In this document: positions 5,540 to 51,902 of the stretch, in pieces | Layout of the letters: every line of letters starts with the position of its first letter | Numbering within the stretch: the first letter of the stretch is position 1 | The notes under the pieces: model-generated | Databases searched by the model: none | What the model was told of the DNA's origin: nothing | The model's input: only the letters and a program-made list of their open reading frames with translations | Made by a program: the position numbers and the translations under genes | Source of the DNA: Candidatus Woesebacteria bacterium GW2011_GWB1_33_22 | GTDB lineage: Bacteria > Patescibacteriota > Microgenomatia > UBA8517 | Direction: 5' to 3' | DNA: 64,000 bases | Assembly: GCA_000989765.1 (NCBI GenBank) | Contig: LBOW01000002.1 | Span: 6,843-70,842 of the forward strand

Positions 5540-5600
5540 GCCAATTACGTTCTTAGGCTGTACAGGTTTATCTTGCTACGGCGTTAGAATTTCTACAAGT

Positions 5601-5627: not shown

Positions 5628-5652
5628 ACTGATAGGGTATAATCAGCTTTAA

Positions 5653-5733: not shown

Positions 5734-5882
5734 CTTTTTTTTGTTATATTAAATTTATGGATGTAATTCACACTTTCAAAAAAAGTGATAAAGGCACATT
5801 AGGAGTCTTTCTATTATTTATTCCTATCGTTGTTTTTTTTACTGTACTTGCAATTTTTAAGATATTAAACTAATATTAAATT

Positions 5883-6413
5883 ATGAAACTTAAGCTTTTA
5901 ACTTTTTTTATACTTTCTTCATTGATAATTGTCCCTTCAGTATCTTCACAAACAGCAACACCACTTAGTAGAAAACAAATTGTGACTGAAAAGGTAGCTT
6001 CCAGACAGGCTGAGATAAGATCTAAAATATCTGCAGTAAGAAGAGAGAGAATAAGAAATTATTTTGGCAAAATGGTGGTTAGAATTGAAGCAACCATTGA
6101 AAGACTTCAAATTTTAATTGATAGAATTGAAACAAGAATAGCAAAGATTAAAGAGGGTGACGAAGAGATAAATACTACTGAGGTAGAAATAACAGTTACA
6201 GACGCCAAGGAAACTTTGGAGAAAGCTAAAACTGAACTTGATAACTTAAAAACAAATCTAGAAGATATGCTGGCATCTGACAACCCCAGAGATAATTTTC
6301 AAGACGTGAGAAATTCTTTAAAAACTGTGATTGGTTACATTAGAGAAGCGCACAAATCACTGGCTATTGCAATCGGTAACATAAAAGGACTTAGAGTAGG
6401 AGACTTTAAATAA
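5883..6413 (+). CDS. secreted coiled-coil hypothetical protein
   Basis: Signal-peptide-like N-terminus MKLKLLTFFILSSLIIVPSVSS; heptad-rich charged sequence. Confidence 0.55.
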   Translation: MKLKLLTFFILSSLIIVPSVSSQTATPLSRKQIVTEKVASRQAEIRSKISAVRRERIRNYFGKMVVRIEATIERLQILIDRIETRIAKIKEGDEEINTTEVEITVTDAKETLEKAKTELDNLKTNLEDMLASDNPRDNFQDVRNSLKTVIGYIREAHKSLAIAIGNIKGLRVGDFK

Positions 6414-6649
6414 TGAAGAGTAAAAGTATTATAGTTTTTTTGGCTATTTTGGTTCTAGTGTTAGCGGGTATATCTTACTTGTTTTCAACTAATACACTTA
6501 CAAAACCCGCTAAATTTGAAAGGGAAATTACCAAGATCGAGACAGTTTCAGAATCGGATGAGACTTCAGACATTGAAACGGATTTAAATGAAACAGATTT
6601 GGATAATCTTGATTTTGAGCTCTCAAATATCGAGGCAGAGTTAAACTAA
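6413..6649 (+). CDS. small membrane-anchored acidic hypothetical protein
   Basis: TM helix then D/E-rich tail; ATGA overlap with upstream gene. Confidence 0.45.
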   Translation: MKSKSIIVFLAILVLVLAGISYLFSTNTLTKPAKFEREITKIETVSESDETSDIETDLNETDLDNLDFELSNIEAELN

Positions 6650-7120
6650 ATGTTTAAACAAATCTTTCTCCCCCTTATTGCAGTTGCAGTTTTTATTACT
6701 CTGGTAGGATTACTTGGTCAGGGCAAACTTACTCCCAAAGTTAGTTTAAAAACTATTAAAATAGACAATCTTGAAATTAGTGTAGAGGTGGCTAAATCTG
6801 CAGATGAAAGAGCAAAAGGTCTTTCAGGCAGAGAAAAATTAGATGAAAATAGTGGAATGGTTTTTGTTTTTGATAAAAACTCTAAACCTGTTTTTTGGAT
6901 GAAAGATACGCTTGTTGCTCTTGATATTATTTGGATCAATGACAATAAAATTATTAGAATTGAAAAAAATGTACAACCTGAAATAGGTAAGACTGATTCT
7001 GAACTCAAAAAATATACTGCTCCATCAATAGTTGATTATGTATTGGAAGTTAATGCTGGTTTTGCTGACAAAAACAATATTAAAATTGACCAAATGATAT
7101 CCGGTCTTGAACAACTTTAG
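6650..7120 (+). CDS. DUF192 domain protein
   Basis: GLSGREKLDENSGMVFVF...FWMKDTLVALDIIWIN...VDYVLEVNAGFA pattern of DUF192/COG1430. Confidence 0.8.
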   Translation: MFKQIFLPLIAVAVFITLVGLLGQGKLTPKVSLKTIKIDNLEISVEVAKSADERAKGLSGREKLDENSGMVFVFDKNSKPVFWMKDTLVALDIIWINDNKIIRIEKNVQPEIGKTDSELKKYTAPSIVDYVLEVNAGFADKNNIKIDQMISGLEQL

Positions 7121-28094: not shown

Positions 28095-28451
28095 ATGAAG
28101 ACAGCAACTGACCCAAGACACTTAAGACGAAGAACGGCTGTAAAAATATTATTTGCCCAGAGTTTTACGCCTCAGAAAAACAGACCAGAACTTGTTAAAA
28201 ACATTTTAAAACAAGTAAAAAAAATAAATAAAATAATTGAAGAATCTGCTCCTACTTGGCCAATTGATAAAATTAATAAAATTGATTTAGCTATATTACA
28301 TTTAGCCATTTACGAACTTAAAAATGAAGATACACCACCAAAAGTAATTATTGATGAGGCGGTCGAGTTGGCCAAAGAATTTGGATCAGAATCGTCAGGC
28401 CCATTTGTTAATGGTGTATTAGGGACAGTATATGATGAAATTTTTAAATAA
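28095..28451 (+). CDS. nusB: transcription antitermination factor NusB-like
   Basis: RRRTAVKILFAQSF (RRxARxxAxQxLF) N-terminus; ATG overlaps rpmF stop. Confidence 0.75.
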   Translation: MKTATDPRHLRRRTAVKILFAQSFTPQKNRPELVKNILKQVKKINKIIEESAPTWPIDKINKIDLAILHLAIYELKNEDTPPKVIIDEAVELAKEFGSESSGPFVNGVLGTVYDEIFK

Positions 28452-29082
28452 CAATTTATTACAGCAAGCCTTAACTCATAAATCATGGGTTAACGAAAAC
28501 CCAGTAAATAACGGCACAAATGAACGATTAGAGTTTTTAGGAGATGCAATTTTAGAATTTATTGTATCTAAAGAAATTTATGATAGATTTCCCAAAGAAG
28601 AAGAGGGATATTTAACAGCACTTCGTGCAAACCTAGTTAATACTAAAAATTTATCAAGGGTTGCCTTAAATTTAAAAATTGGGGAAATGATTTTACTTTC
28701 AAAAGGTGAAGAAGATGGAGGAGGAAGAAATAATCCTTCACTTCTTGCTGACACGGTTGAAGCAATAATTGGGGCTCTTTTTATAGATCAAGGTATTAAT
28801 GTTGCTGAAAAGTTTGTTAAAGATAATATCTTAATAGATATAGAAGAAAAAACAAAAACTACTCTTAAAGATCCAAAAAGTTTACTTCAAGAAAAAATTC
28901 AGGCCCAAGGTCTTCCTGCACCTAAATATCAAGTTGCAGAAGAAGATGGACCAGATCACAATAAAATATTTACGATTGAAGTTATAATTGACGGTAAAGA
29001 AAAAACTAAAGGAATAGGAAAAAGTAAATCAGAAGCAGAACAAGATGCAGCTATGAACGCTCTTAGAAACATGGTAAAATAG
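28432..29082 (+). CDS. rnc: ribonuclease III
   Basis: ERLEFLGDAILEF signature, C-terminal dsRBD. Confidence 0.95.
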   Translation: MMKFLNNNLLQQALTHKSWVNENPVNNGTNERLEFLGDAILEFIVSKEIYDRFPKEEEGYLTALRANLVNTKNLSRVALNLKIGEMILLSKGEEDGGGRNNPSLLADTVEAIIGALFIDQGINVAEKFVKDNILIDIEEKTKTTLKDPKSLLQEKIQAQGLPAPKYQVAEEDGPDHNKIFTIEVIIDGKEKTKGIGKSKSEAEQDAAMNALRNMVK

Positions 29083-29088
29083 GAAATT

Positions 29089-29313
29089 ATGTCAGTATCA
29101 ATAAAACTTTCAAGGGTTGGGGCCAAAAATAATTGTTTTTATAGAATTGTGGCTGGAACCACAAGATCCAAAGTGGATGGTAAAAACTTGGGTGTAATCG
29201 GAACTTACGATCCAAAAAAGAAAAAGTTAGAGTTAGATAAAAAAATGCTTGAGGATTGGATCAGTAAGGGCGCTATATTAACTGAAGGTGTGAGAAAAAT
29301 TATCAAAAAATGA
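29089..29313 (+). CDS. rpsP: 30S ribosomal protein S16
   Basis: MSVSIKLSRVGAKNNCFYRIVAGTTRSKVDGKNLGVIGTYDP. Confidence 0.9.
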   Translation: MSVSIKLSRVGAKNNCFYRIVAGTTRSKVDGKNLGVIGTYDPKKKKLELDKKMLEDWISKGAILTEGVRKIIKK

Positions 29314-29552
29314 AAGAGCTTCTTGAATTTATTATTAAAAACATTTTGGGGAAAACGGCTAAATTTGAAATCGATGAAGTTGATGATGGCAGTATGGTTA
29401 CTTTAACTGTTAAGACAAAAGATGAAGATGGGGGAATGATTATAGGAAAACAAGGAAAAATTATTAAAGCAATTAGAAACATTCTTAGAATTAAAGCCGT
29501 TCTCGAAAAGAAAAAGGTAATTCTTTTAGTTAATCCCCAAATCCAGCCCTAA
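29310..29552 (+). CDS. KH-domain RNA-binding protein (YlqC-like)
   Basis: GGMIIGKQGKIIKAIR GxxG KH motif; conserved position after rpsP. Confidence 0.85.
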   Translation: MKELLEFIIKNILGKTAKFEIDEVDDGSMVTLTVKTKDEDGGMIIGKQGKIIKAIRNILRIKAVLEKKKVILLVNPQIQP

Positions 29553-29559
29553 TATCAGA

Positions 29560-30393
29560 ATGTTTGATAATTATATCGCTTCAAAAAAAGATTTACTGGC
29601 AGTTGAAAAAGCTTTAGAAATTCTTTGGAATCCAAAATTAGATTATATATTTAAATACAAAGAAAGAATTGAAAATATTCCTGTAACTAGTTTTGATTCA
29701 AAATATATTTATCTTTGGACAAGAAAAAATAATAAATATAACCTATCTAAGTTTACACACAATATTAAAAAAATCGATGATTCTTTACAAAAAGGATGGA
29801 GATCTGGAATTTATATTCAAGAAATTAAAAATATTCTAAAAAAAGAAACAGGGAAGGTTATAAATGGACCTTGTGGGGGATTATTAACACCGTTTACAGA
29901 AATACATAAAAAAATTAGTAAAACATCGAGTGATCCATATTTTACGAAAGAAAGTTATTACGCAACGATTTTACACGAGTTCGGTCATATTTATTGGGAT
30001 AGTTTTAAGCTTTGGTGGCCTTCAGATAAAAAAGAGAATCTTAATTTTCTAAAAACTGCGAAAGGCTATTACATGAAAGATAATATATCAACCAAAACTA
30101 ATATTATTTTCCCAAATCCAAGATTTGTCTCTGAAATATTTGCATTTTGTACAGAATACTCAGCCAGTGAAATTTTTTGGCCAGAACATATTAAATACTT
30201 TGATAAGTTTGCAATTCTTCGAATAGAAAAAATGATTTTGGAAGAAAAAAACAAAGATCTTGGTGTGCAGGATTCATCTCTTGAAGCCAATATCAATCCG
30301 CATGATTATGCTCTAGTTGCAGGAAAAACACTACATACCCAATCTCTAAAAGACTGGGTGAGTATTCTTATTAAACCTCTAAAACTCGCTTAA
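29560..30393 (+). CDS. hypothetical HExxH-motif protein (putative zinc metallopeptidase-like)
   Basis: ILHEFGHIYWD; convergent with the RiPP-like locus. Confidence 0.45.
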   Translation: MFDNYIASKKDLLAVEKALEILWNPKLDYIFKYKERIENIPVTSFDSKYIYLWTRKNNKYNLSKFTHNIKKIDDSLQKGWRSGIYIQEIKNILKKETGKVINGPCGGLLTPFTEIHKKISKTSSDPYFTKESYYATILHEFGHIYWDSFKLWWPSDKKENLNFLKTAKGYYMKDNISTKTNIIFPNPRFVSEIFAFCTEYSASEIFWPEHIKYFDKFAILRIEKMILEEKNKDLGVQDSSLEANINPHDYALVAGKTLHTQSLKDWVSILIKPLKLA

Positions 30394-30629
30394 CCAGGAT
30401 AGCAAGATGGTCTTGGAAACGGTCTTGGTGGCTCAGGTGCTTTTCCATTTGGATAACAAGGCAGTGTATCCGGACCACACGGTCCCAGTGCTGGTCGACA
30501 ATTGTTGGGATAACAATCAGTATTTGGTCTGCAAGCCGCATTCGGTGGGCAATCATTTGGCGGACAACCAGCTAATTTTATAGGTGTAACCAAAACAATT
30601 TCTGGTTCTAAGTTAAGTTCAGCTTTCAT
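30390..30629 (-). CDS. Cys/Pro-rich small peptide, candidate RiPP precursor (leader MKAELNLEPEIVLVTPIKLAG + core with 8x C-x-P)
   Basis: Core CPPNDCPPNAACRPNTDCYPNNCRPALGPCGPDTLPCYPNGKAPEPPRPFPRPSCYPG; start overlaps stop of radical-SAM/SPASM gene. Confidence 0.5.
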   Translation of the reverse strand: MKAELNLEPEIVLVTPIKLAGCPPNDCPPNAACRPNTDCYPNNCRPALGPCGPDTLPCYPNGKAPEPPRPFPRPSCYPG

Positions 30630-31530
30630 TTATTTCTTCACCCCCTTCCATTATATTAATATAAATTGGTTTATGTTCAAGATCTAATTTCCAGTATCCT
30701 TTTCCCCATTTACCTTCATATGGGTTATAAGCACATTTTGGATATGGAGCTTCAATAATATTGCCAACAACTTGATCTCTTGAAAAAACACAGGGTAGGA
30801 TGTCTCCATTATCTGTTATTGCAATTTTTCCAGATAAACAACTATTGTTATGTAAATTTTTTGATAGTGTTTCTTTATTTATGTAAAAATTTGGTGAAGT
30901 CATAATTCCGTTTATTAGTAATGATTTATTACTTGGTAGTAAATTGAGATTATCTCCTCGACCATTCTGCCTTAATACATCAAGTCTTCTGTGAGAAAAC
31001 CCCATTTCATCTACTAATTTTTGAGTTTCCTCAGCACTTTCCTCGTTTTGTTTCATTAATATAGTTTCGACCCTAGTTGGAACTCCTACTTCTTTAAGCA
31101 TTTCCAAAGCCTCCATGGTCTTTTTATGACTTCCTTTTGTCCTTGTAATTTTGTCATGAACTTCAGGATCAGTAGAATACAAAGAAACTGCGACATTAAT
31201 TTCTAAGTTTTTTATACGATTAATTCTGTCTTGTGTAAGTAGTGTTGCGTTTGTAAATATTTCGATAAATTTAAATCCCAATTCTTTTGCATATTCAGCA
31301 AGGTCTAAAACAGTTTCTCCTTTTTCTCCTCTATATAAAAAAGGTTCACCTCCTATAAATTGACATGTTTCACAACCCAAATCATGAACATTTTTTTCTT
31401 GAGCTTTCCATTGGTCAAAAGTTAGTTTAATTTTGTCTACCTGATCTGACTTTTCTTGAAATGTTGGAGGCATAAAATCCCCATAACAATGTAAGCATCT
31501 TTCATTACAATCTTTTGAAACTATTTCAAA
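30619..31530 (-). CDS. radical SAM / SPASM-domain peptide-modifying enzyme (rSAM part; CxxxCxxC lies upstream of first ATG at 31473, contiguous in frame with RRE ORF across a TGA)
   Basis: In-frame codons 31474-31530 encode FEIVSKDCNERCLHCYGDF (CxxxCxxC); GGEPFLY; C-terminal SPASM-like CLSGKIAITDNGDILPCVF. Confidence 0.75.
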   Translation of the reverse strand, partial: FEIVSKDCNERCLHCYGDFMPPTFQEKSDQVDKIKLTFDQWKAQEKNVHDLGCETCQFIGGEPFLYRGEKGETVLDLAEYAKELGFKFIEIFTNATLLTQDRINRIKNLEINVAVSLYSTDPEVHDKITRTKGSHKKTMEALEMLKEVGVPTRVETILMKQNEESAEETQKLVDEMGFSHRRLDVLRQNGRGDNLNLLPSNKSLLINGIMTSPNFYINKETLSKNLHNNSCLSGKIAITDNGDILPCVFSRDQVVGNIIEAPYPKCAYNPYEGKWGKGYWKLDLEHKPIYINIMEGGEEINES

Positions 31531-31821
31531 TCAAGCAAATTGCAAACTAGGTTTATATTCCAATTCACTAAGTATTTGTTTTTCAAGATGATTTTTATCG
31601 GTACATAATCCCATTGACACCAATTTCTTCCAGAAATTAGTGTTTTTCGATCGTCCAGTTAAAACATCCTGAGCATTTTTGTCTAATGAATAAACATTTC
31701 CAGAATTAATATCATATAATGCACATCTTGAGAAGCCTTCAACCAAGAACACCCCTGATTTTAAAGAATATTCTACAAAAGACAGAAGTTCTTTTATATC
31801 TTGTTTATATTCGGAAGACAT
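31531..31821 (-). CDS. RRE (PqqD-like RiPP recognition element) domain, same frame as downstream rSAM, terminated by in-frame TGA at 31531-31533
   Basis: FLVEGFSRCALYDINSGNVYSLDKNAQDVLTG...FWKKLVSMGL pattern typical of PqqD-like domains. Confidence 0.55.
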   Translation of the reverse strand: MSSEYKQDIKELLSFVEYSLKSGVFLVEGFSRCALYDINSGNVYSLDKNAQDVLTGRSKNTNFWKKLVSMGLCTDKNHLEKQILSELEYKPSLQFA

Positions 31822-31891: not shown

Positions 31892-32566
31892 TCAGTTAAA
31901 CGGATCTTCTTTTTGGTTTACTCCTTCTGAAGGTTTTGGTTCAATGAACTGTGGTAAATCATATTTTGATATTTCTGCCAGTATTTTTTCTTCTTCGGTT
32001 GTTAATCCGTCAACAGAAGATGTAACAGAAGGAATTTGTTTAGGAAGCTCGGTTGAATAAACACTTAATGAAACTGCAGTTTTAGATGAATCTCCAACTA
32101 AACTTATTTTTGCTTTAGTAATGTTTGCAATAGGCAAGGTCGTTGTAAACGATTCTAGAAAACTGTAGATATCAAATATTTTACCGTCTAGGTCAAAGGA
32201 AATTAGATTTGATTCTATTAAATTATCTTCCGAAACCGCATTACCTGATCTCAAATTTGAAACCAAGACATTAAACTTGAAGGCCTTAACTTTAACTTGG
32301 TTCATTGCGTAAAGTGCCGATGCTCGGTTTGGGAGAGCAACATCAACAAATGTAATATTTTCCGATATTTTAGTATCAACAGTTCTAAGTGTTGAAATTT
32401 TATTGTTTAAACCTGACTCAACTTTTTTTGCATCACTTATTTTGCTCCTAATATCATTAATTTGTTTAACACCAAAAATAGTAGTAAATAGTAGCAAACA
32501 AAAAATTACTACAAATATAGCAACCGGCTTTATTATATAATTTATTTGATTATTTAATTCTTTCAT
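31892..32566 (-). CDS. pilO: type IV pilus assembly protein PilO-like (start taken at internal MKELNN to avoid overlap)
   Basis: Single TM + coiled-coil + C-terminal periplasmic domain; follows pilM-pilN. Confidence 0.55.
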   Translation of the reverse strand: MKELNNQINYIIKPVAIFVVIFCLLLFTTIFGVKQINDIRSKISDAKKVESGLNNKISTLRTVDTKISENITFVDVALPNRASALYAMNQVKVKAFKFNVLVSNLRSGNAVSEDNLIESNLISFDLDGKIFDIYSFLESFTTTLPIANITKAKISLVGDSSKTAVSLSVYSTELPKQIPSVTSSVDGLTTEEEKILAEISKYDLPQFIEPKPSEGVNQKEDPFN

Positions 32567-32570
32567 TTTT

Positions 32571-33110
32571 TTAATTGCTAAATAATATCTCACTTGTATA
32601 CCCAAATGATGGATTAAAACCAAGCGAAGATAAAACAACCTTTTTAAAACCTGCAACTTCGACAAGTTTACTAAACATAAAGGCTAAACTGTTTGATGTC
32701 TTTGAAAATGCCGAGATTTCCATCTTGTTATGGTCTATATTTATTTCAGTTATTCCAACATCAGACGAACTTAAAAATGCGCTTGTTAAATTTTTAACTT
32801 GGCTTAAGTTTTCATAAATTGATTTACTTTTCTTAAGTTTTGAGATTTTTGATAATTTGTCCTTAGCTAAAATTAATTTCTGTTCACTTTTTTCTAAAGA
32901 AGTAACTATAGTTTTTAAGTCTGCAACAGCCGAAGTAGATTTTTTAAGTTCAAGAGAAAAATAAAAATAAGCTCCAACCGCACCGAGAAGAGAAATTACT
33001 AAAATGACTGAGAGAATTAGATTAACTTTTACAAAAAAAGCTTTGACTGCTTTGACTTTTGTTGGCACTATTAAATCACTTGGAATTAAATTTATTTTTT
33101 TGTTAATCAT
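32571..33110 (-). CDS. pilN: type IV pilus assembly protein PilN-like
   Basis: INLIP N-terminus, single TM, coiled coil. Confidence 0.65.
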   Translation of the reverse strand: MINKKINLIPSDLIVPTKVKAVKAFFVKVNLILSVILVISLLGAVGAYFYFSLELKKSTSAVADLKTIVTSLEKSEQKLILAKDKLSKISKLKKSKSIYENLSQVKNLTSAFLSSSDVGITEINIDHNKMEISAFSKTSNSLAFMFSKLVEVAGFKKVVLSSLGFNPSFGYTSEILFSN

Positions 33111-34107
33111 ACATTGCTAAACCTACCGCTGTTCCATAAATTGAAGAGTATTGCGACAAACTTTTTGCGGTCTCAGGCTCTAGATTTATCTTTGCAAAAG
33201 GATTGCCTAAAATTGTCTCAATGCCTAAAACTTCAGTCAAATAAGATATTAGGTTGGGCATTAGTGATGCCCCCCCTGAAATAACAACAGATGAGGGTGC
33301 TTCACCTTTTTCTTCACTTTGATAATAATGGATAGCTTTTTTTATTTCATCAACTACCATTCTAAAAATTGGTTCAAGAGCCAATTTGACTTTTCCTTCT
33401 AATTGTTCAGTGGATAAACCATAGGTTTTTTTATATTCCTCAGCTTGAGATTGGTTAACACCCAATGACTGAGCAACAGCCCTTGTGAATGCCTCGCCAG
33501 CAACAGGAATTGACCTTGTAAATACTACTTTGGAGTCTCTGGTTATGGCCATATCAGTACTTGTTGCACCAAGGTCTAAAAGTATTGATGTTCCTTTTTC
33601 GGGGGACATACTACGAGCCAATGCTGTAAGTTCTGTTTCGGCTGAAGATGGATTAAAACCTGCAAGTCTAATCACCTTAACATATTTTTCAACCACAATT
33701 TTTGGGGCTGCAACCAAAAGTACTGATGTTTGAGCTTCAGCCTCTCGTCGATCAAGTACTATGTGTTGTACAACCGCCTCATTAATTGGAATTGGTATAT
33801 ATTGCTCAGCTTCCCATTTAACAGCAGCAACAATTTCTTCATCAGTTAGAAGAGGAAACTTAATAATTCTTGTAAAGGCTAATTGCTCGGGGAGAGAGAT
33901 GTTAACCTCCTTTTCAGTAATACCTATTTGTTTTAGTGTTTTTTTAAGAATTTCAGCTAGAGCTACAAATTCTTTTTCATCAATCATTTTATCAGGGCTT
34001 GCTCCAGAGTAACCCACCGCACCTGAAGATTTAAGATTCCATTTTGAGGACTCTTTTGTAAGTTCAATAACTTTTATACTTTTTGATCCAATATCTATTC
34101 CAACCAT
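33103..34107 (-). CDS. pilM: type IV pilus assembly protein PilM (actin-like ATPase)
   Basis: MVGIDIGSKSIKVIEL... actin/FtsA-like fold signature; 334 aa. Confidence 0.9.
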   Translation of the reverse strand: MVGIDIGSKSIKVIELTKESSKWNLKSSGAVGYSGASPDKMIDEKEFVALAEILKKTLKQIGITEKEVNISLPEQLAFTRIIKFPLLTDEEIVAAVKWEAEQYIPIPINEAVVQHIVLDRREAEAQTSVLLVAAPKIVVEKYVKVIRLAGFNPSSAETELTALARSMSPEKGTSILLDLGATSTDMAITRDSKVVFTRSIPVAGEAFTRAVAQSLGVNQSQAEEYKKTYGLSTEQLEGKVKLALEPIFRMVVDEIKKAIHYYQSEEKGEAPSSVVISGGASLMPNLISYLTEVLGIETILGNPFAKINLEPETAKSLSQYSSIYGTAVGLAMYD

Positions 34108-34123
34108 GAGCAGTTTATTTAAT

Positions 34124-34969
34124 TTATTTTACAACACCACTTGCACTAAAGATACTATTTTCAAAAATCGGGGGAGCTACCTTATAAGTCTCATAGACTT
34201 CTATTTTTCTGTTAGCTCCTCCAAATGATCCAGAAGAAATAACTTTATTCCCTTGAGATGGAAGCAGTCCAAACCCTGTTACATCAATTCCAATTTTGTG
34301 GGCAACTGTAGTATTGTATAATATTCTAACATTGGCATATTTAAGATCTGAATTTGCCCCAAGGCTTGCCAAATTAACGTTAGTTTCAAATTCAAAATCT
34401 TCATTTTCAATTGTGCAATTTGAGTTGACAGAATCAAAACCATTTGATTCGGCTCTTGCAGAATTGGGGTCAAATACTGCTCTAGCAATTTGCAGGTTAG
34501 AAATATCACCATAATAAACAGTAAGCTCTATTGCAGGTGCAAATCCATCAACAGGAGTATCAGAATCTCCCCAACAGAAAGTAACCTGATTGCCATCAAA
34601 TTGTGAATCACCAACAACGCCTTGATGAGGAGCAAACCAAAATACGGCAATTTCCCCGGATTTTAAACTAACAGGATAAACGACACTTGTTTCTCCTTGT
34701 CCAAAACTTGAAACATTTGCTTCAAAATTTGCTCCACCTATTTCTGAAGGACCAGTAGAACCTAATATCAAGGCCCTCTCGATACCTGCCTCTGCCGCTG
34801 AAAAAGCACGTAAGGAATCTTCCTCTTTTGAAGAAAGTGAAAGATCAGTAACTGAACGAGACATGATATATAAAACGATAATCAAAACGACAGAAAGTGA
34901 AAGAAGAACTATTAAAACAGCTTGACCTGCTTGCCGGTAGGCAGGGCCCTCATTATTTCTTGACTTCAT
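34124..34969 (-). CDS. PilX-like pilus-associated protein (N-terminal TM + AFSAAEAGIERAL motif), carries variant palindromic element near 5' end
   Basis: PilX_N-like ...SLRAFSAAEAGIERAL...; element encodes PAYRQAGQ at residues 9-16. Confidence 0.55.
   Translation of the reverse strand: MKSRNNEGPAYRQAGQAVLIVLLSLSVVLIIVLYIMSRSVTDLSLSSKEEDSLRAFSAAEAGIERALILGSTGPSEIGGANFEANVSSFGQGETSVVYPVSLKSGEIAVFWFAPHQGVVGDSQFDGNQVTFCWGDSDTPVDGFAPAIELTVYYGDISNLQIARAVFDPNSARAESNGFDSVNSNCTIENEDFEFETNVNLASLGANSDLKYANVRILYNTTVAHKIGIDVTGFGLLPSQGNKVISSGSFGGANRKIEVYETYKVAPPIFENSIFSASGVVK
34926..34945. repeat. variant copy of GC-rich palindrome (CCTGCTTGCCGGTAGGCAGG; two C->T changes giving G.U-compatible positions)
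   Basis: 18/20 identity to CCTGCCTGCCGGCAGGCAGG; in frame in minus-strand CDS. Confidence 0.8.
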
Positions 34970-35230: not shown

Positions 35231-35530
35231 ATGATTAAGATTCCAAGTAAATTGCAAGGTATTTTATGGTCAGTGCCTCTCAATAAAATTGATCTTAAAG
35301 TTCATAAATCATATTTAACTCATCAAATACTTATGTTTGGTAGTTTTGATGATATTAAATGGCTTTTTAATGTGTATCCAAATAATGATATTAAAAGTAT
35401 CTTCATAGATAAACCTCAGAAAATATACACACCAGAGGGTTTTAATTTTGTTAAAAACTTCGTTCTCAATTTAAAAGACCAAAACATACCACCCAAAAAT
35501 TATGTCAATGTTATACACTCAAAATCTTAA
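35231..35530 (+). CDS. hypothetical protein, possible cognate partner (antitoxin-like) of downstream nucleotidyltransferase
   Basis: Overlaps downstream gene by 29 nt, suggesting co-translation; no motif. Confidence 0.35.
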   Translation: MIKIPSKLQGILWSVPLNKIDLKVHKSYLTHQILMFGSFDDIKWLFNVYPNNDIKSIFIDKPQKIYTPEGFNFVKNFVLNLKDQNIPPKNYVNVIHSKS

Positions 35531-36152
35531 TAAAAATCAGTTAATAATTTATGAAAAACTAAAGGCGTTTAATAGTGATTTTGTATTGGCTGGTGGTACA
35601 TCATTAATGCTTCAAATTAACCATCGCAAAAGTTACGATTTTGATTGTTTTTCAGAGAAACCTCTAAATAAATCTTTGCTTCGAAAAGTAAAAAAGGTGT
35701 TTGGTAATAGCATTCATATATTGATAGATAACAATAGTTTGTTGCTTTTTACAACACCACAGGGGGTTAAAGTAGATTTAGTTTATTATCCATATAAACC
35801 TTTACACCAAATAATAAAAAATGCACCTATTTCCTTGTTTGGTTTTAGGGATATAGCTTCAAACAAAGCTTATACTATTGGTAGGAGAGCTACTTGGAGA
35901 GATTATGTTGATTTATTTTGTTTATTAAAAAATAATACCGTTAAAATAGAAAATATTATTAAAGATGCTAAAAAAAGATTTGGGGGGGAATTTAGTGAAA
36001 AGTTATTTTTGGAACAACTAGTCTACTTTAATGACCTTGACATAGTCCCAATTGAGTTTATTAACCAAAGCTATGAACCATCAGAGATCAAACAGACACT
36101 TGAAATGATTACTCAACAATACACAAAAACTTCTTTATTTGCTATACTTTAA
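35502..36152 (+). CDS. nucleotidyltransferase, AbiEii/DUF1814-like
   Basis: FVLAGGTSLMLQINHRKSYDFDCF (GGT/S-AL...R.S.D.D) minimal NTase fold signature. Confidence 0.55.
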   Translation: MSMLYTQNLNKNQLIIYEKLKAFNSDFVLAGGTSLMLQINHRKSYDFDCFSEKPLNKSLLRKVKKVFGNSIHILIDNNSLLLFTTPQGVKVDLVYYPYKPLHQIIKNAPISLFGFRDIASNKAYTIGRRATWRDYVDLFCLLKNNTVKIENIIKDAKKRFGGEFSEKLFLEQLVYFNDLDIVPIEFINQSYEPSEIKQTLEMITQQYTKTSLFAIL

Positions 36153-36154
36153 GT

Positions 36155-36802
36155 ATGGCACGGGCTACTAAAATATTACTTTTCTTTTTATTTTCAATTT
36201 CAGTCTCAACCACAGCCTATTTGGCCTTTAGATATTATAAAGAAACCAGGATTCCACAAGAAAATCTTGAACTTAATTTAACTGGAACCATCAAAAAAGG
36301 TAAAGATATATCACCTCAAAAAGATTATTGTCCAAACGAACTCTACATTGTAACTAAAGATAAAACATACCAATTAAGAACCCCCGACAAAAGAAATGAA
36401 AAAGCCTCAATAGTTTATGCAAAATACCGTGATCTTGAAGTTTCTCTGAAAGCCAAATTTAATGATATTTTACCAAACAACGATCCAAGAAAGAAAAATT
36501 GTGCCTCCGATCAATTTATTTTAGTTGAAAAAATTAACAGTAACAATAAAACAACATCAGTTTTTAATTCATACTCCGGCAAAATTTCTTGCCTACCTTT
36601 ACTTAATGGAGAACAAGTAAATTCTTCAGACTGTGCCTTAGGATTAGCTACAAATGATGGAAAATATTATATTTTGGAAGATATTGCTGATGATTTTATA
36701 ACTCAAGGCAAGGAAATTAATTTAACAGGGGATTTATCAAATGAAAAAACAATTTCAAATTATAAAATTGACGGAGTCATAAGCGTGATTGAAGTGAAGT
36801 AA
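36155..36802 (+). CDS. secreted hypothetical protein
   Basis: N-terminal signal/TM MARATKILLFFLFSISVSTTAYLAF. Confidence 0.5.
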   Translation: MARATKILLFFLFSISVSTTAYLAFRYYKETRIPQENLELNLTGTIKKGKDISPQKDYCPNELYIVTKDKTYQLRTPDKRNEKASIVYAKYRDLEVSLKAKFNDILPNNDPRKKNCASDQFILVEKINSNNKTTSVFNSYSGKISCLPLLNGEQVNSSDCALGLATNDGKYYILEDIADDFITQGKEINLTGDLSNEKTISNYKIDGVISVIEVK

Positions 36803-36806
36803 AACA

Positions 36807-36975
36807 TGATATAATTTGAATATGACAAAAGTTCAAAAAATATACAAAAAATATTTATCAAATAAAAAAAAGAATTCTGCATTAGATTTTTTTAAATCTT
36901 TCATGCCTGAAATGATTTACAGAACAATGAAACTTGAGGGAGAACCGTCAACAAGACGAAGAATTTTATCTCTAT
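36807..36975 (+). repeat. direct repeat copy A (~135-165 bp) carrying extended -10 TGATATAAT and a 53-codon ORF
   Basis: Near-identical to 37664-37800 except a 24-bp segment absent from copy B. Confidence 0.7.
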
Positions 36976-36983
36976 TTACATAA
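36822..36983 (+). CDS. small ORF within repeat copy A (53 aa), immediately upstream of fic
   Basis: MTKVQKIYKKYLSNKKKNSALDFFKSFMPEMIYRTMKLEGEPSTRRRILSLFT; truncated to 28 aa in copy B. Confidence 0.3.
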   Translation: MTKVQKIYKKYLSNKKKNSALDFFKSFMPEMIYRTMKLEGEPSTRRRILSLFT

Positions 36984-36986
36984 ATA

Positions 36987-37625
36987 ATGGCAAAATACGG
37001 GTCAACATCTTTCAAAGATACAAACTTTGGAATTTTACCCCGAGAGAAATTAGTGAAACTAGAAGAAAAAGGGGTTAAAAAGGGACTAGATTATATATCT
37101 TCACTTAATCAAAACGTAATTAAAACAACAGATATTGATATTCCACTGATTCTTAAACTTCACAAAATTTCATATGCTTGGATTTTCCCAAAGTGGGCAG
37201 GTAAATTTAGAACTATCGATGTGGCATATTCAGGCAAAGAAGCAATTGAATATTTTAAAGTAAGAGAAGCGATTACTAATTTATGTTTAGATCTAAAAGT
37301 AAGAATGAACCACCTTTCTTCAAAAAATAACAGTAAATACATAACAAATGTTATTGAACTTGTATCATGGTTTCAACACAGATTCGTTCAAATACATCCA
37401 TTTAATGACTATAACGGTAGAACAGCAAGAATGTTAACTTCATTTTTACTATTAAAATTTGATTTACCTGCAATTGAAATAAAAGCAGATAACAAAAGTG
37501 ATAGAAAAAAGTATATACGAGCCATGCAGGAGGCAGATGAGGGGAATTATTCGAATTTGGAAAAACTTATTGCATCTGCATTAGAAGAAGGTTTACAAAA
37601 ATTTGACTTAAAGCTAAAAACTTGA
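36987..37625 (+). CDS. Fic/Doc family protein
   Basis: Fic motif HPFNDYNGRTARM (HPFx[DE]GNGR). Confidence 0.9.
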   Translation: MAKYGSTSFKDTNFGILPREKLVKLEEKGVKKGLDYISSLNQNVIKTTDIDIPLILKLHKISYAWIFPKWAGKFRTIDVAYSGKEAIEYFKVREAITNLCLDLKVRMNHLSSKNNSKYITNVIELVSWFQHRFVQIHPFNDYNGRTARMLTSFLLLKFDLPAIEIKADNKSDRKKYIRAMQEADEGNYSNLEKLIASALEEGLQKFDLKLKT

Positions 37626-46911: not shown

Positions 46912-47403
46912 TTAATAATTTCTAGCAATTATTTCAGTTTCTGAAGTTACGCTACCTTTTTCAACTGATGTTGAAACAGTATCCTCAGCAGCTATACTAA
47001 TTCTCACAGATATTGGAGAGTTTATGTCTGTTTGAATACAACTTAAGGAACAATTTGTGACAACAATATCGGATGATGTCAATCTGCCAGAACCAGATGC
47101 AATATAATCATCGACACACGAGATAGTGCTATCCACACCTTCTAGGGCGGTGTAATAGATAATGGAAGCAGTCGAACTAACGCAATCAATACTTTGGGCA
47201 TTTCTTATTTGTCTTTCCATTACACCCATTGCATAATTAACATTTTCTCGAACCCTGACTAACGAATCGCTTTTTTTAGCACCCCTAATTGTTAAAAATA
47301 TCGATCTAGTAGTTAAAATTCCAATTACGGCAAAAATTGAAATAACAACAAGTATCTCAATTAAACTAAAACCACGCCTAACGGCGGGCGGGCCTTTTCT
47401 CAT
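46912..47403 (-). CDS. type IV pilin-like protein (prepilin-type N-terminal methylation motif GFSLIEIL)
   Basis: RRGFSLIEILVVISIFAVIGIL. Confidence 0.7.
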   Translation of the reverse strand: MRKGPPAVRRGFSLIEILVVISIFAVIGILTTRSIFLTIRGAKKSDSLVRVRENVNYAMGVMERQIRNAQSIDCVSSTASIIYYTALEGVDSTISCVDDYIASGSGRLTSSDIVVTNCSLSCIQTDINSPISVRISIAAEDTVSTSVEKGSVTSETEIIARNY

Positions 47404-47828
47404 TGTTCCCTCCTGTCTGTAAAATCAGTTGATGTTGAAACCTGATGAATTCCTTTTGAATCAGTCCAAGATGTTGTTACTACAACACTAACTATATTTC
47501 CAGAATTCGTAAATACCATTTGTCTAGTAAAAATACTATTAGGAATTATTTCAAGTTCAGCACATAATCCTTGGTTAGTAAAATTTAATTGATCTAAACA
47601 GTATGTATCAGTTGAGTTTGTTAAAAATAAATTAATATCACTTTCTTTTTGGGATCTTAGCCATTCGACTGCTTCTTGAGTATATTTTGAAGATAAAGTC
47701 TTGTTTTTTGAAAACAGCGAATTTGAAATTGAAATCGTAGAAAGAATAACTACAGCAACAACAATTAAAGTAATAATAAAAAGGGCCAGAAGTACTTCAA
47801 ACATTGATTGGCCTGAATCAGTTTTCAT
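47400..47828 (-). CDS. minor pilin-like protein (PilV/PilW-like)
   Basis: GQSMFEVLLALFIITLIVVAVVIL with Glu at +5. Confidence 0.6.
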   Translation of the reverse strand: MKTDSGQSMFEVLLALFIITLIVVAVVILSTISISNSLFSKNKTLSSKYTQEAVEWLRSQKESDINLFLTNSTDTYCLDQLNFTNQGLCAELEIIPNSIFTRQMVFTNSGNIVSVVVTTSWTDSKGIHQVSTSTDFTDRREQ

Positions 47829-48286
47829 TCTATATCTCCTCCAATGCCAATTGTGACTTGCCCCGTTGTCCCAGCTAAATCATGGGTTAATGTCAAAGTA
47901 AGTGAAGAAATTAGATCAGTCCCTTGTCCTAATACTTTAAATTTAATAAAACTTGGTAAACTTGAAATTGTTATATTTTTGGATGATAAATCAACAGTCT
48001 TAATGATAATGTCACTAGGTTCACAACTGGCTATTAATTCATAAACATAAGAATCAGAAAGATTAAATAAATAACCTGAAAGAGTTACGCAACCTTCTGG
48101 TTTTTGACCAGTCAAGGCAAATTGTTGGGCTGATCTTAAATCAGCCTTAACTGCTTTTAAAACTCCTGTTAGTGTTTGACGTCTGGAGAACTCTCTAAAA
48201 CTAACAAACCCAATTGTAAAAACAATTATTATAATTGTTATAGCTATTAAAAGTTCAATTAATGTATATGCCGAATTTCGCTTCAT
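47825..48286 (-). CDS. type IV pilin-like protein (Ala at -1 instead of Gly: SAYTLIELL)
   Basis: MKRNSAYTLIELLIAITIIIIVF. Confidence 0.65.
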   Translation of the reverse strand: MKRNSAYTLIELLIAITIIIIVFTIGFVSFREFSRRQTLTGVLKAVKADLRSAQQFALTGQKPEGCVTLSGYLFNLSDSYVYELIASCEPSDIIIKTVDLSSKNITISSLPSFIKFKVLGQGTDLISSLTLTLTHDLAGTTGQVTIGIGGDIE

Positions 48287-48729
48287 GGATTAGTAACTTT
48301 ATAATTACACGCTAAACTACCACAAGATGAACCGCAATTTATTGTTGTACCACCTTGTTCAAGAGAAGCACATAAATTATATTCACTCCCTGAAACTTGA
48401 TAAACATAATTTTTTCCAGCAACAGGATCGGCAGGGATTAATGAAATATATGTATTTGCAACCGCGCATGATGTCGGAGTACCACTTCCAATTAAAGAAT
48501 TACCAAAGGTAATTGAACCAGGATATGTATTACAATCTGCTTTGTAAAGCTCAAGGCCTGACCGTATAAGTTCCAAATCAGATTTTCTTCTAGCATCTCT
48601 TGCCGATTCTCTGGCACCTGACAAACCAAAAATTGAAATGGCTATTAAAATGCCTATTATTGAAATAACTACTAATAATTCAATTAAAGTAAAAGCCTTG
48701 TATATTTTTTTCATTGTAATGTTGGACAA
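48283..48729 (-). CDS. type IV pilin paralogue (likely start at internal MKKIYKAFTLIELL)
   Basis: KAFTLIELLVVISIIGILIAI + shared SARESARDARRKSDL motif. Confidence 0.8.
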   Translation of the reverse strand: MSNITMKKIYKAFTLIELLVVISIIGILIAISIFGLSGARESARDARRKSDLELIRSGLELYKADCNTYPGSITFGNSLIGSGTPTSCAVANTYISLIPADPVAGKNYVYQVSGSEYNLCASLEQGGTTINCGSSCGSLACNYKVTNP

Positions 48730-49151
48730 ACTCCGGCACTACTACTTGGACTTGTTGTTGTTTTTCCATTTTTGCCGTTACTACAAACCACCCAATAAGT
48801 TGTTGTTGATTCATTTTCTAAAGTTGCCCAAAGAACATACCCTAAACCATTGGCGTCAGTAATGTAGTAATAAACAAGAGTTGGGTCTTTAGGATCTAGG
48901 GAACAATTAGTTAAACTTAAATCAGTACATAATGTTGAAATACTTACCGCAATTTGATGTATCGGATATAGACCCTCATTTTTACTTGCATATTCTTCAA
49001 CAGAAGTTTGATATTGTTTCATATCCGATTTTCTGTTCACATCACGTGCTTGTCTTTGAGCTCCAGTAAAAGAAACTAAAGCTAATGCAGACAATATGCC
49101 AATAAGAGAAATGACAATTAACATTTCGATTAATGTAAAGGCTTTTCTCAT
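48711..49151 (-). CDS. type IV pilin paralogue
   Basis: MRKAFTLIEMLIVISLIGIL + AQRQARDVNRKSDM motif. Confidence 0.8.
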   Translation of the reverse strand: MRKAFTLIEMLIVISLIGILSALALVSFTGAQRQARDVNRKSDMKQYQTSVEEYASKNEGLYPIHQIAVSISTLCTDLSLTNCSLDPKDPTLVYYYITDANGLGYVLWATLENESTTTYWVVCSNGKNGKTTTSPSSSAGVCPTLQ

Positions 49152-49582
49152 GGTTTTACTTCATATTTATATCCACTAGCACAACCTGCTTCAACAATAC
49201 CTTTATCATCACTAGGATTTTCAAGACAAGCATAAAGAGTATATAAATCAGTATCAACAGCATCTCTTGCATATACATAATCTTGTGTGGGGGATAAAGG
49301 ATCAGCAGGTAAGATGTTCATGTAAGTAACACTCCCGTCTGTCCAGGGAGAACCCCAGACAGGCAAATCTCCCACTAATGGATAAATACTATTATCATTA
49401 TAATAAAGCCTTAAGGCAGTTTGAATATTTCGCAGATCCGATTTTCTTTCTGCATCCCTTGCTCTTTCTCTTGCTGAATTTAAATTTGCCAAAACTAGTG
49501 TTGCTAAAATTCCAATTAATGAAATCACAACTAATAGTTCAACAAGTGTAAATGCCTTTTGTGTTTTCATCGTACTTATCAC
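49148..49582 (-). CDS. type IV pilin paralogue
   Basis: QKAFTLVELLVVISLIGILA + SARERARDAERKSDL motif. Confidence 0.8.
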   Translation of the reverse strand: MISTMKTQKAFTLVELLVVISLIGILATLVLANLNSARERARDAERKSDLRNIQTALRLYYNDNSIYPLVGDLPVWGSPWTDGSVTYMNILPADPLSPTQDYVYARDAVDTDLYTLYACLENPSDDKGIVEAGCASGYKYEVKP

Positions 49583-49596
49583 TTTATATCATATCA

Positions 49597-50058
49597 CTAT
49601 TCACTAGCGTTCGTGTTTGCACTAGTAACTGAAAAGTTGCAATTACCTGTCCCTCCACAACCACTGTTAGTAATTGTTAAATCCAAATTTCTGTCTTGGC
49701 TATTTTCAAGTTTTGCAAAAAGTTGATATTTTTGGTTTAGAGAACCTGCTACTACTTGATATACATAATTAAAATTTGAAGAAGGATCCTTTGGCAAAAT
49801 TTTGAAATAAATGGTTCCTTTGCTATCAGAAAACTCATCTGTTCCAGAAATTAAGTCAATTTCATCTACGTTTGGATATTTATGGTAATCTGAATAAAAA
49901 AGTTCTAAAGCATGGGAAATTTGTTTTAAGTCAGATTTCCTCTGGGCATCTCTTCCTCTCATTTGGGCAGTTCTAAAACTGCCTACTGCAAGAGATGCTA
50001 AAACTCCAATAATTGCCATCACAACCAAAAGTTCAACTAAGGTGAATGCTTTTTTCAT
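49597..50058 (-). CDS. type IV pilin paralogue (start trimmed to MKKAFTLVELL)
   Basis: KKAFTLVELLVVMAIIGVLA + AQMRGRDAQRKSDL motif. Confidence 0.8.
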   Translation of the reverse strand: MKKAFTLVELLVVMAIIGVLASLAVGSFRTAQMRGRDAQRKSDLKQISHALELFYSDYHKYPNVDEIDLISGTDEFSDSKGTIYFKILPKDPSSNFNYVYQVVAGSLNQKYQLFAKLENSQDRNLDLTITNSGCGGTGNCNFSVTSANTNASE

Positions 50059-50059
50059 A

Positions 50060-50554
50060 TTAACTGCCCCACCTTCCATAATTACATATAAAGTCGCCAC
50101 AATGCAAGTTTTTCTGTATTATTGTTAGGCTGTATTCATCTTCATTTTTACCTTCGAGAGAAACATATATTTCATATTTATCTCCATCTGAAATATATAA
50201 GTATTTTCGTCCTTTTCTATAACTAGGGTCATTATTAATTACATTAATATTTTCAAATTTAGAAACACCCCAATCACAGGCTACAGCATTTAATGCATGG
50301 CTAGTTTCATTATCAACAACTGGATTTTCAATAAAACATCCAATAATTCTCCCGTCAATGGTTGATTTAGGAAATTCTTTATATTTTTGCAAAAAAGTAT
50401 CAACTTCTTTTTGCATAGCGGACATATCATTTTTACGAGTAGTATCTCTACCTTTACGAAGTGAAGTTTTAATATTAATTCCTGTTACTAAAATTAAAAA
50501 CGTAAATATTATTAATAGATATTTAATCTCTGTTTTATTAAAAAGATGTAACAT
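50060..50554 (-). CDS. degenerate pilin-like paralogue lacking canonical G-F-T-L-I-E prepilin motif
   Basis: Retains family motif LRKGRDTTRKNDM...TFLQKY but N-terminus is IKYLLIIFTFLILVTGI without cleavage/methylation signature. Confidence 0.45.
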   Translation of the reverse strand: MLHLFNKTEIKYLLIIFTFLILVTGINIKTSLRKGRDTTRKNDMSAMQKEVDTFLQKYKEFPKSTIDGRIIGCFIENPVVDNETSHALNAVACDWGVSKFENINVINNDPSYRKGRKYLYISDGDKYEIYVSLEGKNEDEYSLTIIQKNLHCGDFICNYGRWGS

Positions 50555-50562: not shown

Positions 50563-51195
50563 TTAGTTCTGCCAAGCAGTGCATTCATTTTCAGGGTTTA
50601 CACATTGATTATAACAGGCGATGTTTTGAAAATTAGGATCACACTCAGGTCCAGGTCTACTTGGGTCCCAATTTATAGGCAGGCAAACACCTGAGAAACA
50701 GCCATAAAAATTATCCTCCGGGGGCGGAGTACCTCCTCCACCTGTGGGCGCAGAAGTTGGCTGTCCTGAAACATCAACTGGTGCATTGGGACTGCCATAA
50801 ACATAACTATAAGAGCTATTTGGACCAATAGCAGTTTGATAATCAACATCTGTTGTGTTATCTAACTTTGAATATATTTTGTACCACTTAGGGCAAGTTG
50901 AATCTTCATGATCATACATATATGAAGCCTTGGTAATTGGATCACAAGGTATTTTATCAATATAAGGCATCAGCCCTGTACCTGGCGAGCAAACAACCAA
51001 ACTGGGCAGGGGATAACAATCATTATCTTTTTCATATTCTTCAACAGCAATTCCTATTCTTTTAATCTCAGCTTTTCTCTTTGCATCATTAGCTTTAAAG
51101 ACTTGTGTTCTTAAAAAAACTGTTATTGCAGTAACTAATAAAGCTATTATGGCAACAACAACCATTAGTTCAACTAAGGTCATTCCTTTTTTCAT
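50563..51195 (-). CDS. type IV pilin paralogue with Cys-rich C-terminal extension (start trimmed to MKKGMTLVELM)
   Basis: KKGMTLVELMVVVAIIALLVTAI; C-terminal ~90 aa with 8 Cys and GGGGTPPP linker. Confidence 0.7.
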   Translation of the reverse strand: MKKGMTLVELMVVVAIIALLVTAITVFLRTQVFKANDAKRKAEIKRIGIAVEEYEKDNDCYPLPSLVVCSPGTGLMPYIDKIPCDPITKASYMYDHEDSTCPKWYKIYSKLDNTTDVDYQTAIGPNSSYSYVYGSPNAPVDVSGQPTSAPTGGGGTPPPEDNFYGCFSGVCLPINWDPSRPGPECDPNFQNIACYNQCVNPENECTAWQN

Positions 51196-51902
51196 GTTAG
51201 TAATATGATCCAAAAGGCAATAATTAAAAACGGACCAAATGCAATTTTTGTTTTTAACTTCGCCTGTCTTAATAATAACAAGAAGACGGATACTATTCCA
51301 CCTATTATAAAGGCGGTCATTAGCCATATTAGGCTTTGGTCGACTGTAAGCCAGAGGCCTAAAGCTATAGCCAACTTGACGTCGCCCAAGCCCATGCCAC
51401 GACCTTTGGTAATAAGGTGAATAAAAAGGAGAACAAGAGCAGAGAGAAAGCCGGCGAACAGACTAGGGTATAGGGTATAGGTGATAGGGGATAGTAAACC
51501 CAAAAACAAAACTAACCAACTCAACTCGTCGGGGATGATTTGATGTTCAACATCAATAATTAAAATGCTAAATGTTAATAAAAATAAAAGAATTAAAACA
51601 AAGTTAGGATACAAAAAAACAAAACCAATGGCCGTAGCAAGTTCGATTAGTGGGTAACGGATTGAGATTTTTTTACTACAGCAACGGCTTTTACCTCTAT
51701 AGCGCAAAAAAGAAACTAGCGGTATATTGTCATACCAAGCAAGTTTCTCTTTGCACAAATCGCAGAAAGACCTTCCACTGATAAAACCCAAACCTCTAGG
51801 GATTCTGTAAGTTATAAGGCTTACAAAAGACCCAATCACCAATCCTAACAATGTAAGCAGGGTAAGTTCAACCATGCCTACATTATTCAGGAATACAAAC
51901 AT
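51192..51902 (-). CDS. pilD: prepilin peptidase (A24 family)
   Basis: N-terminal zinc-binding CDLCKEKL...RYRGKSRCC (CxxC...CxxC), multiple TM helices, GLGDVKL catalytic Asp region. Confidence 0.85.
   Translation of the reverse strand: MFVFLNNVGMVELTLLTLLGLVIGSFVSLITYRIPRGLGFISGRSFCDLCKEKLAWYDNIPLVSFLRYRGKSRCCSKKISIRYPLIELATAIGFVFLYPNFVLILLFLLTFSILIIDVEHQIIPDELSWLVLFLGLLSPITYTLYPSLFAGFLSALVLLFIHLITKGRGMGLGDVKLAIALGLWLTVDQSLIWLMTAFIIGGIVSVFLLLLRQAKLKTKIAFGPFLIIAFWIILLT

Follow-up and report, generated by a model that had tools for sequence, protein, structure and literature searches.

A 64,000-nucleotide stretch of the Candidatus Woesebacteria bacterium GW2011_GWB1_33_22 genome (contig LBOW01000002.1; this whole stretch is called the window below) carries three adjoining genes, which encode a radical S-adenosylmethionine (radical-SAM) enzyme with a SPASM-type C-terminal region, a short Cys/Pro-rich peptide, and a protein with an HExxH motif. 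An earlier note on this DNA had singled out the first two as a candidate locus for a novel peptide that is synthesized on ribosomes and modified post-translationally (a RiPP), with the radical-SAM enzyme as maturase and a RiPP recognition element (RRE) at its N-terminus. The open reading frames (ORFs) it named were all found, on the minus strand; its pairing of maturase and peptide holds at the level of the family, and it overlooked the third conserved gene. On balance, we favor reading the three genes as a RiPP cassette of a large, apparently undescribed family, which would form one Cys-derived thioether per Cys-x-Pro (C-x-P) unit and of which the window holds a decayed copy. The features of the locus are as follows.

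29560..30393, plus strand: HExxH protein of 277 residues, convergent with the peptide gene and overlapping it by 4 nt at the peptide stop; putative metallopeptidase/leader peptidase.
30390..30629, minus strand: precursor peptide gene, 79 residues (ORF, homologue clusters, substitution rates).
30619..31821, minus strand: maturase gene (N-terminal RRE-like domain, radical-SAM core and SPASM remnant), disrupted, probable pseudogene (translation, homologues).
31531-31821, minus strand: 96-residue ORF from the ORF listing, the upstream part of the interrupted maturase frame.
30619-31473, minus strand: 284-residue ORF in the same frame, the downstream part of the maturase.
31534..31821, minus strand: putative leader-binding (RRE-like) N-terminal domain, ~96 residues (AlphaFold2 (AF2) topology of the orthologue P0002, NCBIfam alignments).
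31531..31533, minus strand: TGA in place of the invariant Trp97 (TGG to TGA); the CX3CX2C motif follows eight codons downstream.
31486..31509, minus strand: CNERCLHC, the CX3CX2C motif for the radical-SAM [4Fe-4S] cluster, codons 105-112.
31336-31353, minus strand: GGEPFL, codons 157-162.
30790..30840, minus strand: first half of the SPASM motif (C-x10-G-x4-C), positions 4-38 of 67 in the Pfam SPASM profile.
30750..30751, minus strand: point at which 162 nt (54 codons) have been lost in frame, from a blastn comparison with metagenome scaffold L001.
30633..30644, minus strand: Shine-Dalgarno-like stretch GGAAGGGGGTGA for the peptide, within the C-terminal codons of the maturase (GGEEINES).

The precursor comprises a leader, MKAELNLEPEIVLVTPIKLAG, with a conserved motif EPEIVLVTP (30582-30608), and a core that starts at Cys22 (30566) and runs through eight C-x-P units, the last of which is CYPG. 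That all eight Cys stand in C-x-P context, as the earlier note had observed, is far from a compositional accident: 2.4 such units are expected after shuffling the core, and 0 of 2000 shuffles reach eight. In six homologue clusters (79-92 residues, 65-81% identity), all eight Cys and the Pro at +2 are invariant, the middle residue of the unit varies, and the clusters share EP(E/K)I.LVT as leader motif and CYPG at the C-terminus. Comparison with the complete Woesebacteria genome CP011214 gave a ratio of nonsynonymous to synonymous substitution (dN/dS) of 0.13 for the peptide gene (dS 0.22), 0.14 for the maturase gene and 0.22 for the HExxH gene. The peptide dS is far lower than that of the maturase (1.06) or HExxH gene (0.44), from a small sample. 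At least 24 public contigs carry the peptide sequence without any change. By these sequence measures, the 79-residue peptide is a real, conserved gene under purifying selection.

Peptide and maturase genes overlap, with the peptide ATG (30627-30629) 11 nt ahead of the maturase stop (30619-30621), which confirms the overlap described earlier. The Shine-Dalgarno-like stretch lies inside the 3′ codons of the maturase gene, suggesting translational coupling of the peptide, and the C-terminal GGE(E/N)(I/N)NES that these codons specify is kept in the orthologues P0002, P0023 and P0060. A sigma-70-like site (TGAACA-18-TATAAT, 30650-30679, minus strand) was also seen in the maturase 3′ end, just upstream of the Shine-Dalgarno-like stretch. 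The peptide might be transcribed separately from it, at a regional count of such sites that equals chance; the promoter and terminator scan as a whole returned counts no higher than chance.

The maturase gene itself is broken. Translation of 30619-31821 yields a single 400-codon frame with one TGA interruption at codon 97. The RRE-like domain had been taken to lie in frame with the radical-SAM core; the junction between them is this stop codon, at a position where all 20 aligned homologues carry Trp (LQFAWFEIVSKDCNERCLHCY). There is no in-frame ATG, GTG or TTG between the TGA and the CX3CX2C motif, and a split enzyme, with a stand-alone RRE and a separate radical-SAM protein, was rejected on that ground. 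The standard code applies, since TGA terminates 12 of the window's 56 long ORFs; with long genes such as recG also uninterrupted, recoding of TGA as Trp or Gly was likewise rejected. The identical TGA is present in the independent assemblies L001 and L080.

A second lesion emerged from blastn comparison of the window with L001, which are 99.9% identical over 13 kb. Within that span there are three differences: the window lacks a 162-nt segment, an indel of 6 nt keeps the frame, and one substitution exchanges Met and Leu. Every one of them lies in the maturase gene (window 30619-31821; L001 5653-7011); the chance of this for a 1.2-kb gene is ~0.001 by simple proportion, (1.2/13)^3. The lost 162 nt encode KSLSQ...VCKDCEYRYCCTDCRP...EYLT, including the four invariant Cys of CxxCx5Cx3C, and the window copy has 400 residues compared with 450-480 in homologues. 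The SPASM-like Cys cluster of the earlier note is accordingly there in part: the first half of the motif and the last Cys are left, whereas CxxCx5Cx3C went with the deletion, and the Pfam SPASM profile (PF13186) reaches 12.7 bits against a cutoff of 21.5 (E=0.17). Outside the stop and the deleted segment, the window maturase matches every invariant column of the family. No further copy of the maturase was found in the window, whose peptide and HExxH genes remain intact.

The maturase gene in the window is inactivated, and the cassette here is most likely a recently decayed, non-producing copy. The simplest reading of the order of events is a TGG-to-TGA nonsense mutation fixed in this Woesebacteria population, then relaxed constraint, then a strain-specific deletion. 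We regard it as unlikely that the defects are artefactual or tolerated and product is still made, either because UGA is read as Trp and the deletion is an assembly error, or because one Twitch-like auxiliary cluster is enough for the enzyme that carries the deletion. Such an account would fit the L080 allele, which is intact at every invariant residue except the stop, as well as the in-frame nature of both the 162-nt and 6-nt indels, the intactness of the peptide and HExxH genes, the purifying selection on the peptide, the absence of the deletion allele from all other assemblies, and the breaks of some assemblies inside the maturase gene, as in L081. Against this, the TGA is identical across three separately assembled sequences, it is a regular stop in this DNA and is followed by a T, and it precedes CX3CX2C with no alternative in-frame start. 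The deletion, for its part, removes four invariant ligands drawn from both auxiliary clusters, and no repeat at its junction could explain an assembly collapse. With a nonsense codon ahead of the SAM-cluster motif and four auxiliary-cluster Cys gone, the locus does not stand as the intact expression candidate for which it had been taken; because the cassette has been caught decaying in this genome, an intact orthologue such as that in CP011214 is the better choice for expression.

What the intact enzyme looks like was read from its relatives. The radical-SAM core recognized in the earlier note (CNERCLHCY and GGEPFL) was located downstream of the TGA, and PF04055 (Radical_SAM) matches the window maturase at E=9e-24 (84.9 bits; cutoff 29.5). 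Among 20 homologues, Pfam identifies Radical_SAM in all 20 and SPASM in 19. A full SPASM motif, C-x9-15-G-x4-C ... C-x2-C-x5-C-x3-C ... C, binds two auxiliary [4Fe-4S] clusters. The SPASM domain of the homologues has seven invariant Cys (C337, C353, C392, C395, C401, C404 and C426 in P0002 numbering) and no conserved eighth Cys upstream. By what is known of CteB/AlbA-type enzymes, seven Cys without an eighth would leave an open site on auxiliary cluster I. An AF2 model of P0002 (predicted local distance difference test score, pLDDT, 70) matches the RiPP maturases SkfB, SuiB, TigE and CteB over nearly its full length, and an anaerobic sulfatase-maturating enzyme (anSME; anSMEcpe, 4k38), MoaA and viperin over the core.

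The RRE, or PqqD-like domain, is a leader-binding winged-helix fold of three strands followed by three helices. In the P0002 model, the N-terminal domain (pLDDT ~70) has strands at 24-28, 33-37 and 42-46, then helices at 48-54 and 61-69; Firmicute members have an insertion at the place of the third helix. NCBIfam alignments to the CcpM, StsB and SCIFF maturase models extend into this domain, starting within residues 12-37. Of the PqqD-like RRE put forward earlier, the predicted topology and these alignments speak for it, while the PqqD profile itself does not match. The domain is likely an RRE-like leader-binding domain, as judged from the model.

To survey the family, one genome per species was scanned for maturase relatives, which yielded 77 loci with identities of 26-100%. 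Represented among them are Microgenomates lineages, WWE3, Paceibacteria, Saccharibacteria, Chloroflexota, Negativicutes (Pelosinus), Clostridium and other Bacillota, Lachnospiraceae (Blautia, Roseburia), Selenomonas, Synergistales, Treponema, Lentisphaeria and Bacteriovoracaceae. The search for co-occurrence in related genomes that the earlier note suggested shows that maturase homologues do pair with Cys-rich small ORFs: an adjacent small ORF with at least three C-x-P is present in 62 of the 77 loci, and most of the other 15 are truncated contigs or the most distant homologues. As background, the whole 64-kb window has just one other ORF with at least three C-x-P. The precursor lies downstream of the maturase in Patescibacteria and Negativicutes, and upstream in Clostridia and gut taxa. 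A profile of the family matches 783 clusters at 50% identity (E<=1e-30) among 1.84 billion cluster representatives.

The C-x-P rule holds far beyond this locus. Across 30 precursors from many phyla, Pro occupies +2 of 220 of the 225 Cys, and no further position is conserved. The precursors are otherwise diverse. The leader motif is EPEIVLVT in the window and IELVT, ECLT, EKLT or LTKVT elsewhere; Pelosinus precursors (L025, L027, L028 and L045, at ~5270-5600) combine a poly-Asp/Tyr leader (MYYDDDDD...) with 8-10 CWPRQQ(Q) units in tandem; a precursor from a Bacillota metagenome-assembled genome has 20 units (CRPRCNP...); that of Woesebacteria CP066693 has CxPD/E units; and that of Blautia reads MYAFECLT...CSPFSGACYPEVEGVCGPDCSPEGGCSPDC. 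Units may abut, as in CSPCNP or CAPCKP (L013, CAPCKPDK), and a unit may close the peptide, as in L014, which ends in ...CSPCNPWGCRP. These abutting and C-terminal units imply that what is recognized or modified lies within three residues or is directed towards the N-terminus.

Adjacency in 62 of 77 loci, a leader motif, overlapping stop and start codons, and purifying selection are all general marks of a RiPP precursor with its maturase, and sequence comparison indicates that the two are a RiPP-type pair, strictly associated across the family, with the Cys/Pro-rich ORF as the conserved partner that the earlier note had supposed. It is highly improbable that the small ORF is no substrate at all, being instead an independent Cys/Pro-rich protein, for example metal-binding or at the cell surface, that happens to lie beside a radical-SAM gene. 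No modified C-x-P peptide has been observed, and the window does encode a second C-x-P-rich protein, in a pilin-like ORF (50563-51327) where C-x-P accounts for 5 of the 12 Cys; yet the small ORF stays next to the enzyme gene, on one side or the other, in more than 10 phyla, and this adjacency, together with a conserved leader motif and overlapping stop and start codons, is what typically marks a RiPP precursor and its maturase.

Gene content varies around this pair. Some Clostridia and gut loci (among L069 5206-6195; L050 5445-6398; L054 and L057, both at 2634-3342 and 5266-6967) have a second, smaller radical-SAM gene directly downstream, and others of the same set have a conserved 202-residue ORF upstream and a two-component regulator. 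The Negativicutes cassette adjoins tig-clpP-clpX.

In the window, the third gene has its HEFGH motif at 29974-29988, and H139, E140, H143, E192, C197 and E199 are invariant among its homologues. Homologues of this type adjoin the precursor in 16 loci; in L010 the gene is on the opposite side of the maturase, and in L021 it is on the same strand. In 12 other patescibacterial loci (L009, L012, L017, L019, L029, L036, L038, L039, L041, L042, L044 and L076), the place beside the precursor is taken by a second HExxH family, ~250 residues long and with an invariant HExxH...HAxIE. Homology between the two families was rejected (hhalign probability 0.2%), a result that points to replacement of one gene by a non-orthologous one with the same function. 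Maturase, peptide and HExxH genes have moved as one block relative to the KH-rpsP-rnc-nusB-rpmF block between related Woesebacteria genomes (window 28095-30393; CP011214, L002 4149-8484). Given the HExxH motif and the gene linkage, the HExxH protein probably removes the leader in Patescibacteria.

How the family relates to known systems was assessed by NCBIfam scans of nine precursors and six maturases, from Woesebacteria, Pelosinus, Clostridium, Patescibacteria, Blautia, Selenomonas and Peptococcaceae lineages. Among the scanned members nothing scored above cutoff, and no curated NCBIfam or Pfam family covers either the maturase subfamily or the precursors. None of the nine precursors matched any NCBIfam model, including that for SCIFF, and the maturases gave only partial matches, to StsB, AlbA, AhbD/NirJ, TIGR04053 and TIGR04193, at 2-10 times below cutoff. 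The earlier impression, that the peptide matches the known precursors of neither thioether RiPP maturases nor anaerobic sulfatase-maturating enzymes and that the locus looks undescribed, is supported in this respect.

Sactipeptide systems (AlbA/subtilosin, StsB and GggB/streptosactin, SkfB) share the overall plan of a leader-binding N-terminus (putative in the C-x-P maturases), a radical-SAM core, SPASM and an adjacent Cys-rich precursor. StsB (76-110 bits) and AlbA (57-91 bits) are the best partial NCBIfam matches and SkfB the best fold match, but the StsB and AlbA scores are 6-10 times under the cutoffs of 625 and 850, and the maturase scored 75.9 with StsB, 56.8 with AlbA and 42 with GggB (cutoff 650). 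In sactipeptide precursors, moreover, a few N-terminal Cys act as donors and form hairpins with acceptors far off at the C-terminal end, in place of many autonomous C-x-P units. Also alike in design are the ranthipeptides (SCIFF/CteB, PapB/freyrasin with repeated C-x3-D, NxxcB, and QhpD/QhpC), in which repeated short Cys units are cross-linked locally by one radical-SAM/SPASM enzyme. Many C-x-P units are followed by D, E or N, and CteB is a full-length structural match. The maturases nevertheless score 43.9 with the PapB model NF047865 (44-73 across members; cutoff 340) and 71 with TIGR03974 (L038; cutoff 425). The residues at +3 and +4 are not conserved, with R, A, T, S, G and I all common and no D/E at a fixed offset, so an Asp, Glu or Asn acceptor is no general rule; a fixed +3/+4 acceptor (D/E/N, as for PapB, QhpD and NxxcB) was rejected as such by the residue counts.

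The CXXX-repeat peptide system (TIGRFAMs TIGR04114-04116) combines a SPASM maturase with a small peptide in which Cys returns at short, regular intervals. It is thus alike in concept, whereas the +2 Pro and variable unit spacing are specific to the C-x-P family; the CXXX-repeat maturase model was not among the top-scoring families for any of the members scanned and the precursor model gave no match, as read from the general NCBIfam lists, with no dedicated test. The grasp-with-SPASM maturase TIGR04193 is the closest curated counterpart of the C-terminal SPASM region with its extension (...CRP...YNPYTGEW), scoring 118 bits (Pelosinus member) and 86 bits (Woesebacteria orthologue) against a cutoff of 175, with only the C-terminal third aligned, but C-x-P loci have no ATP-grasp gene. 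The cassette is a widespread and apparently undescribed one, of a kind with those for Cys-rich, radical-SAM/SPASM-modified RiPPs.

By analogy with these systems, the likeliest chemistry would be a thioether cross-link derived from Cys, formed once in each C-x-P unit. The N-terminal domain of the maturase would dock the precursor leader, and the thiol of a substrate Cys would bind the open site of auxiliary cluster I; in CteB/AlbA-type enzymes thiol binding at such a site points to C–S bond formation. A 5′-deoxyadenosyl radical would then take a hydrogen atom from that C-x-P unit or from a position adjoining it, and a C–S (thioether) bond would form, once per unit. The candidates for a universal acceptor all lie inside the unit, namely the alpha carbon of x or a Pro carbon, and the invariant +2 Pro may be the acceptor itself or may fix a turn that presents it. 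In Patescibacteria, the HExxH protein would then remove the leader. More speculative, and in our judgment possible but doubtful, is a version in which each C-x-P becomes a previously unknown three-residue ring, through a thioether from Cys sulfur to a Pro carbon or another Cys/Pro-centered modification. It would constitute a new RiPP class extending from genome-reduced members of the candidate phyla radiation to human-gut Lachnospiraceae, with two unrelated HExxH peptidase families recruited independently in Patescibacteria to remove the leader.

The main chemical rival draws on the anSMEs, to which the earlier note had also pointed. Like anSME/AtsB, the maturase would be a SPASM radical-SAM enzyme acting on a Cys followed by x-Pro, and each C-x-P Cys would be oxidized at C-beta to formylglycine or another Cys-only product, with no cross-links. 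C-x-P is the first half of the established anSME motif C/S-x-P/A-x-R, a Cys-only change fits the three residues into which the modification must fit, anSMEcpe (4k38) is among the structural matches, and position +3 is occupied most often by Arg (43 of 225). We nonetheless judge this unlikely. The maturases score 42-53 bits with TIGR03942 (42.4 for the maturase tested; cutoff 349), no better than with dozens of other radical-SAM families, and the +4 residue is mainly C, Q, G or N, with no conserved Arg. Whereas anSMEs act at a single C/S-x-P/A-x-R site in folded sulfatases, lack a leader-binding or RRE domain, and have auxiliary cluster I fully ligated by an eighth Cys, the C-x-P family has a putative leader-binding N-terminal domain and seven Cys, and no sulfatase gene lies near the cassette.

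Several observations tell against a thioether-forming cassette of which the window holds a decayed copy. Thioether formation is an analogy. PF05402, the PqqD HMM (hidden Markov model), matches neither the window protein nor the 20 homologues, and a profile of the N-terminal domain found nothing in the PDB; for these reasons, we keep the RRE assignment at likely, short of demonstrated. Neither by fold nor by sequence does the HExxH protein match any peptidase significantly. As to decay, the L080 allele, the ancestral-like one of this population, keeps all 80 other invariant residues, so its nonsense codon is either very recent or partly read through, and an exact-match look-up of the deleted allele gave no other record, leaving the deletion seen only in this window. 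Finally, no description of a C-x-P radical-SAM peptide family was found in the open-access literature, and it may have been described elsewhere.

The cassette lies directly downstream of pilX/M/N/O-like genes (31892-34969), and pilus, ribosomal and RecG genes surround it. Elsewhere in the window, the pilin-like ORF at 50563-51327 (minus strand) has a prepilin motif from residue 45, and its five C-x-P among 12 Cys represent an excess with binomial p=0.002 (~0.03 corrected for the 17 ORFs tested). At 47400-50100 (minus strand), six ORFs of ~145-165 residues form a tandem array with overlapping stop and start codons, and five of the six have an N-terminal methylation (type IV pilin/pseudopilin) motif. 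Beside the pilus genes, at 35231-37625 (plus strand), are a DUF6922/AbiEii pair and a Fic-domain gene, with Pfam labels taken from the identical L001 genes; these are probable toxin-antitoxin or abortive-infection modules.

For the C-x-P class we found no curated family and no published chemistry. If the family reading is true, it would amount to a RiPP class that spans hundreds of sequence clusters in more than 10 phyla, from candidate-phyla-radiation bacteria with tiny genomes to common gut Firmicutes. The compact, repeatable cross-link that its three-residue unit suggests would be of interest to peptide engineers, and its core would obey an unusually strict and minimal rule, Cys-x-Pro.

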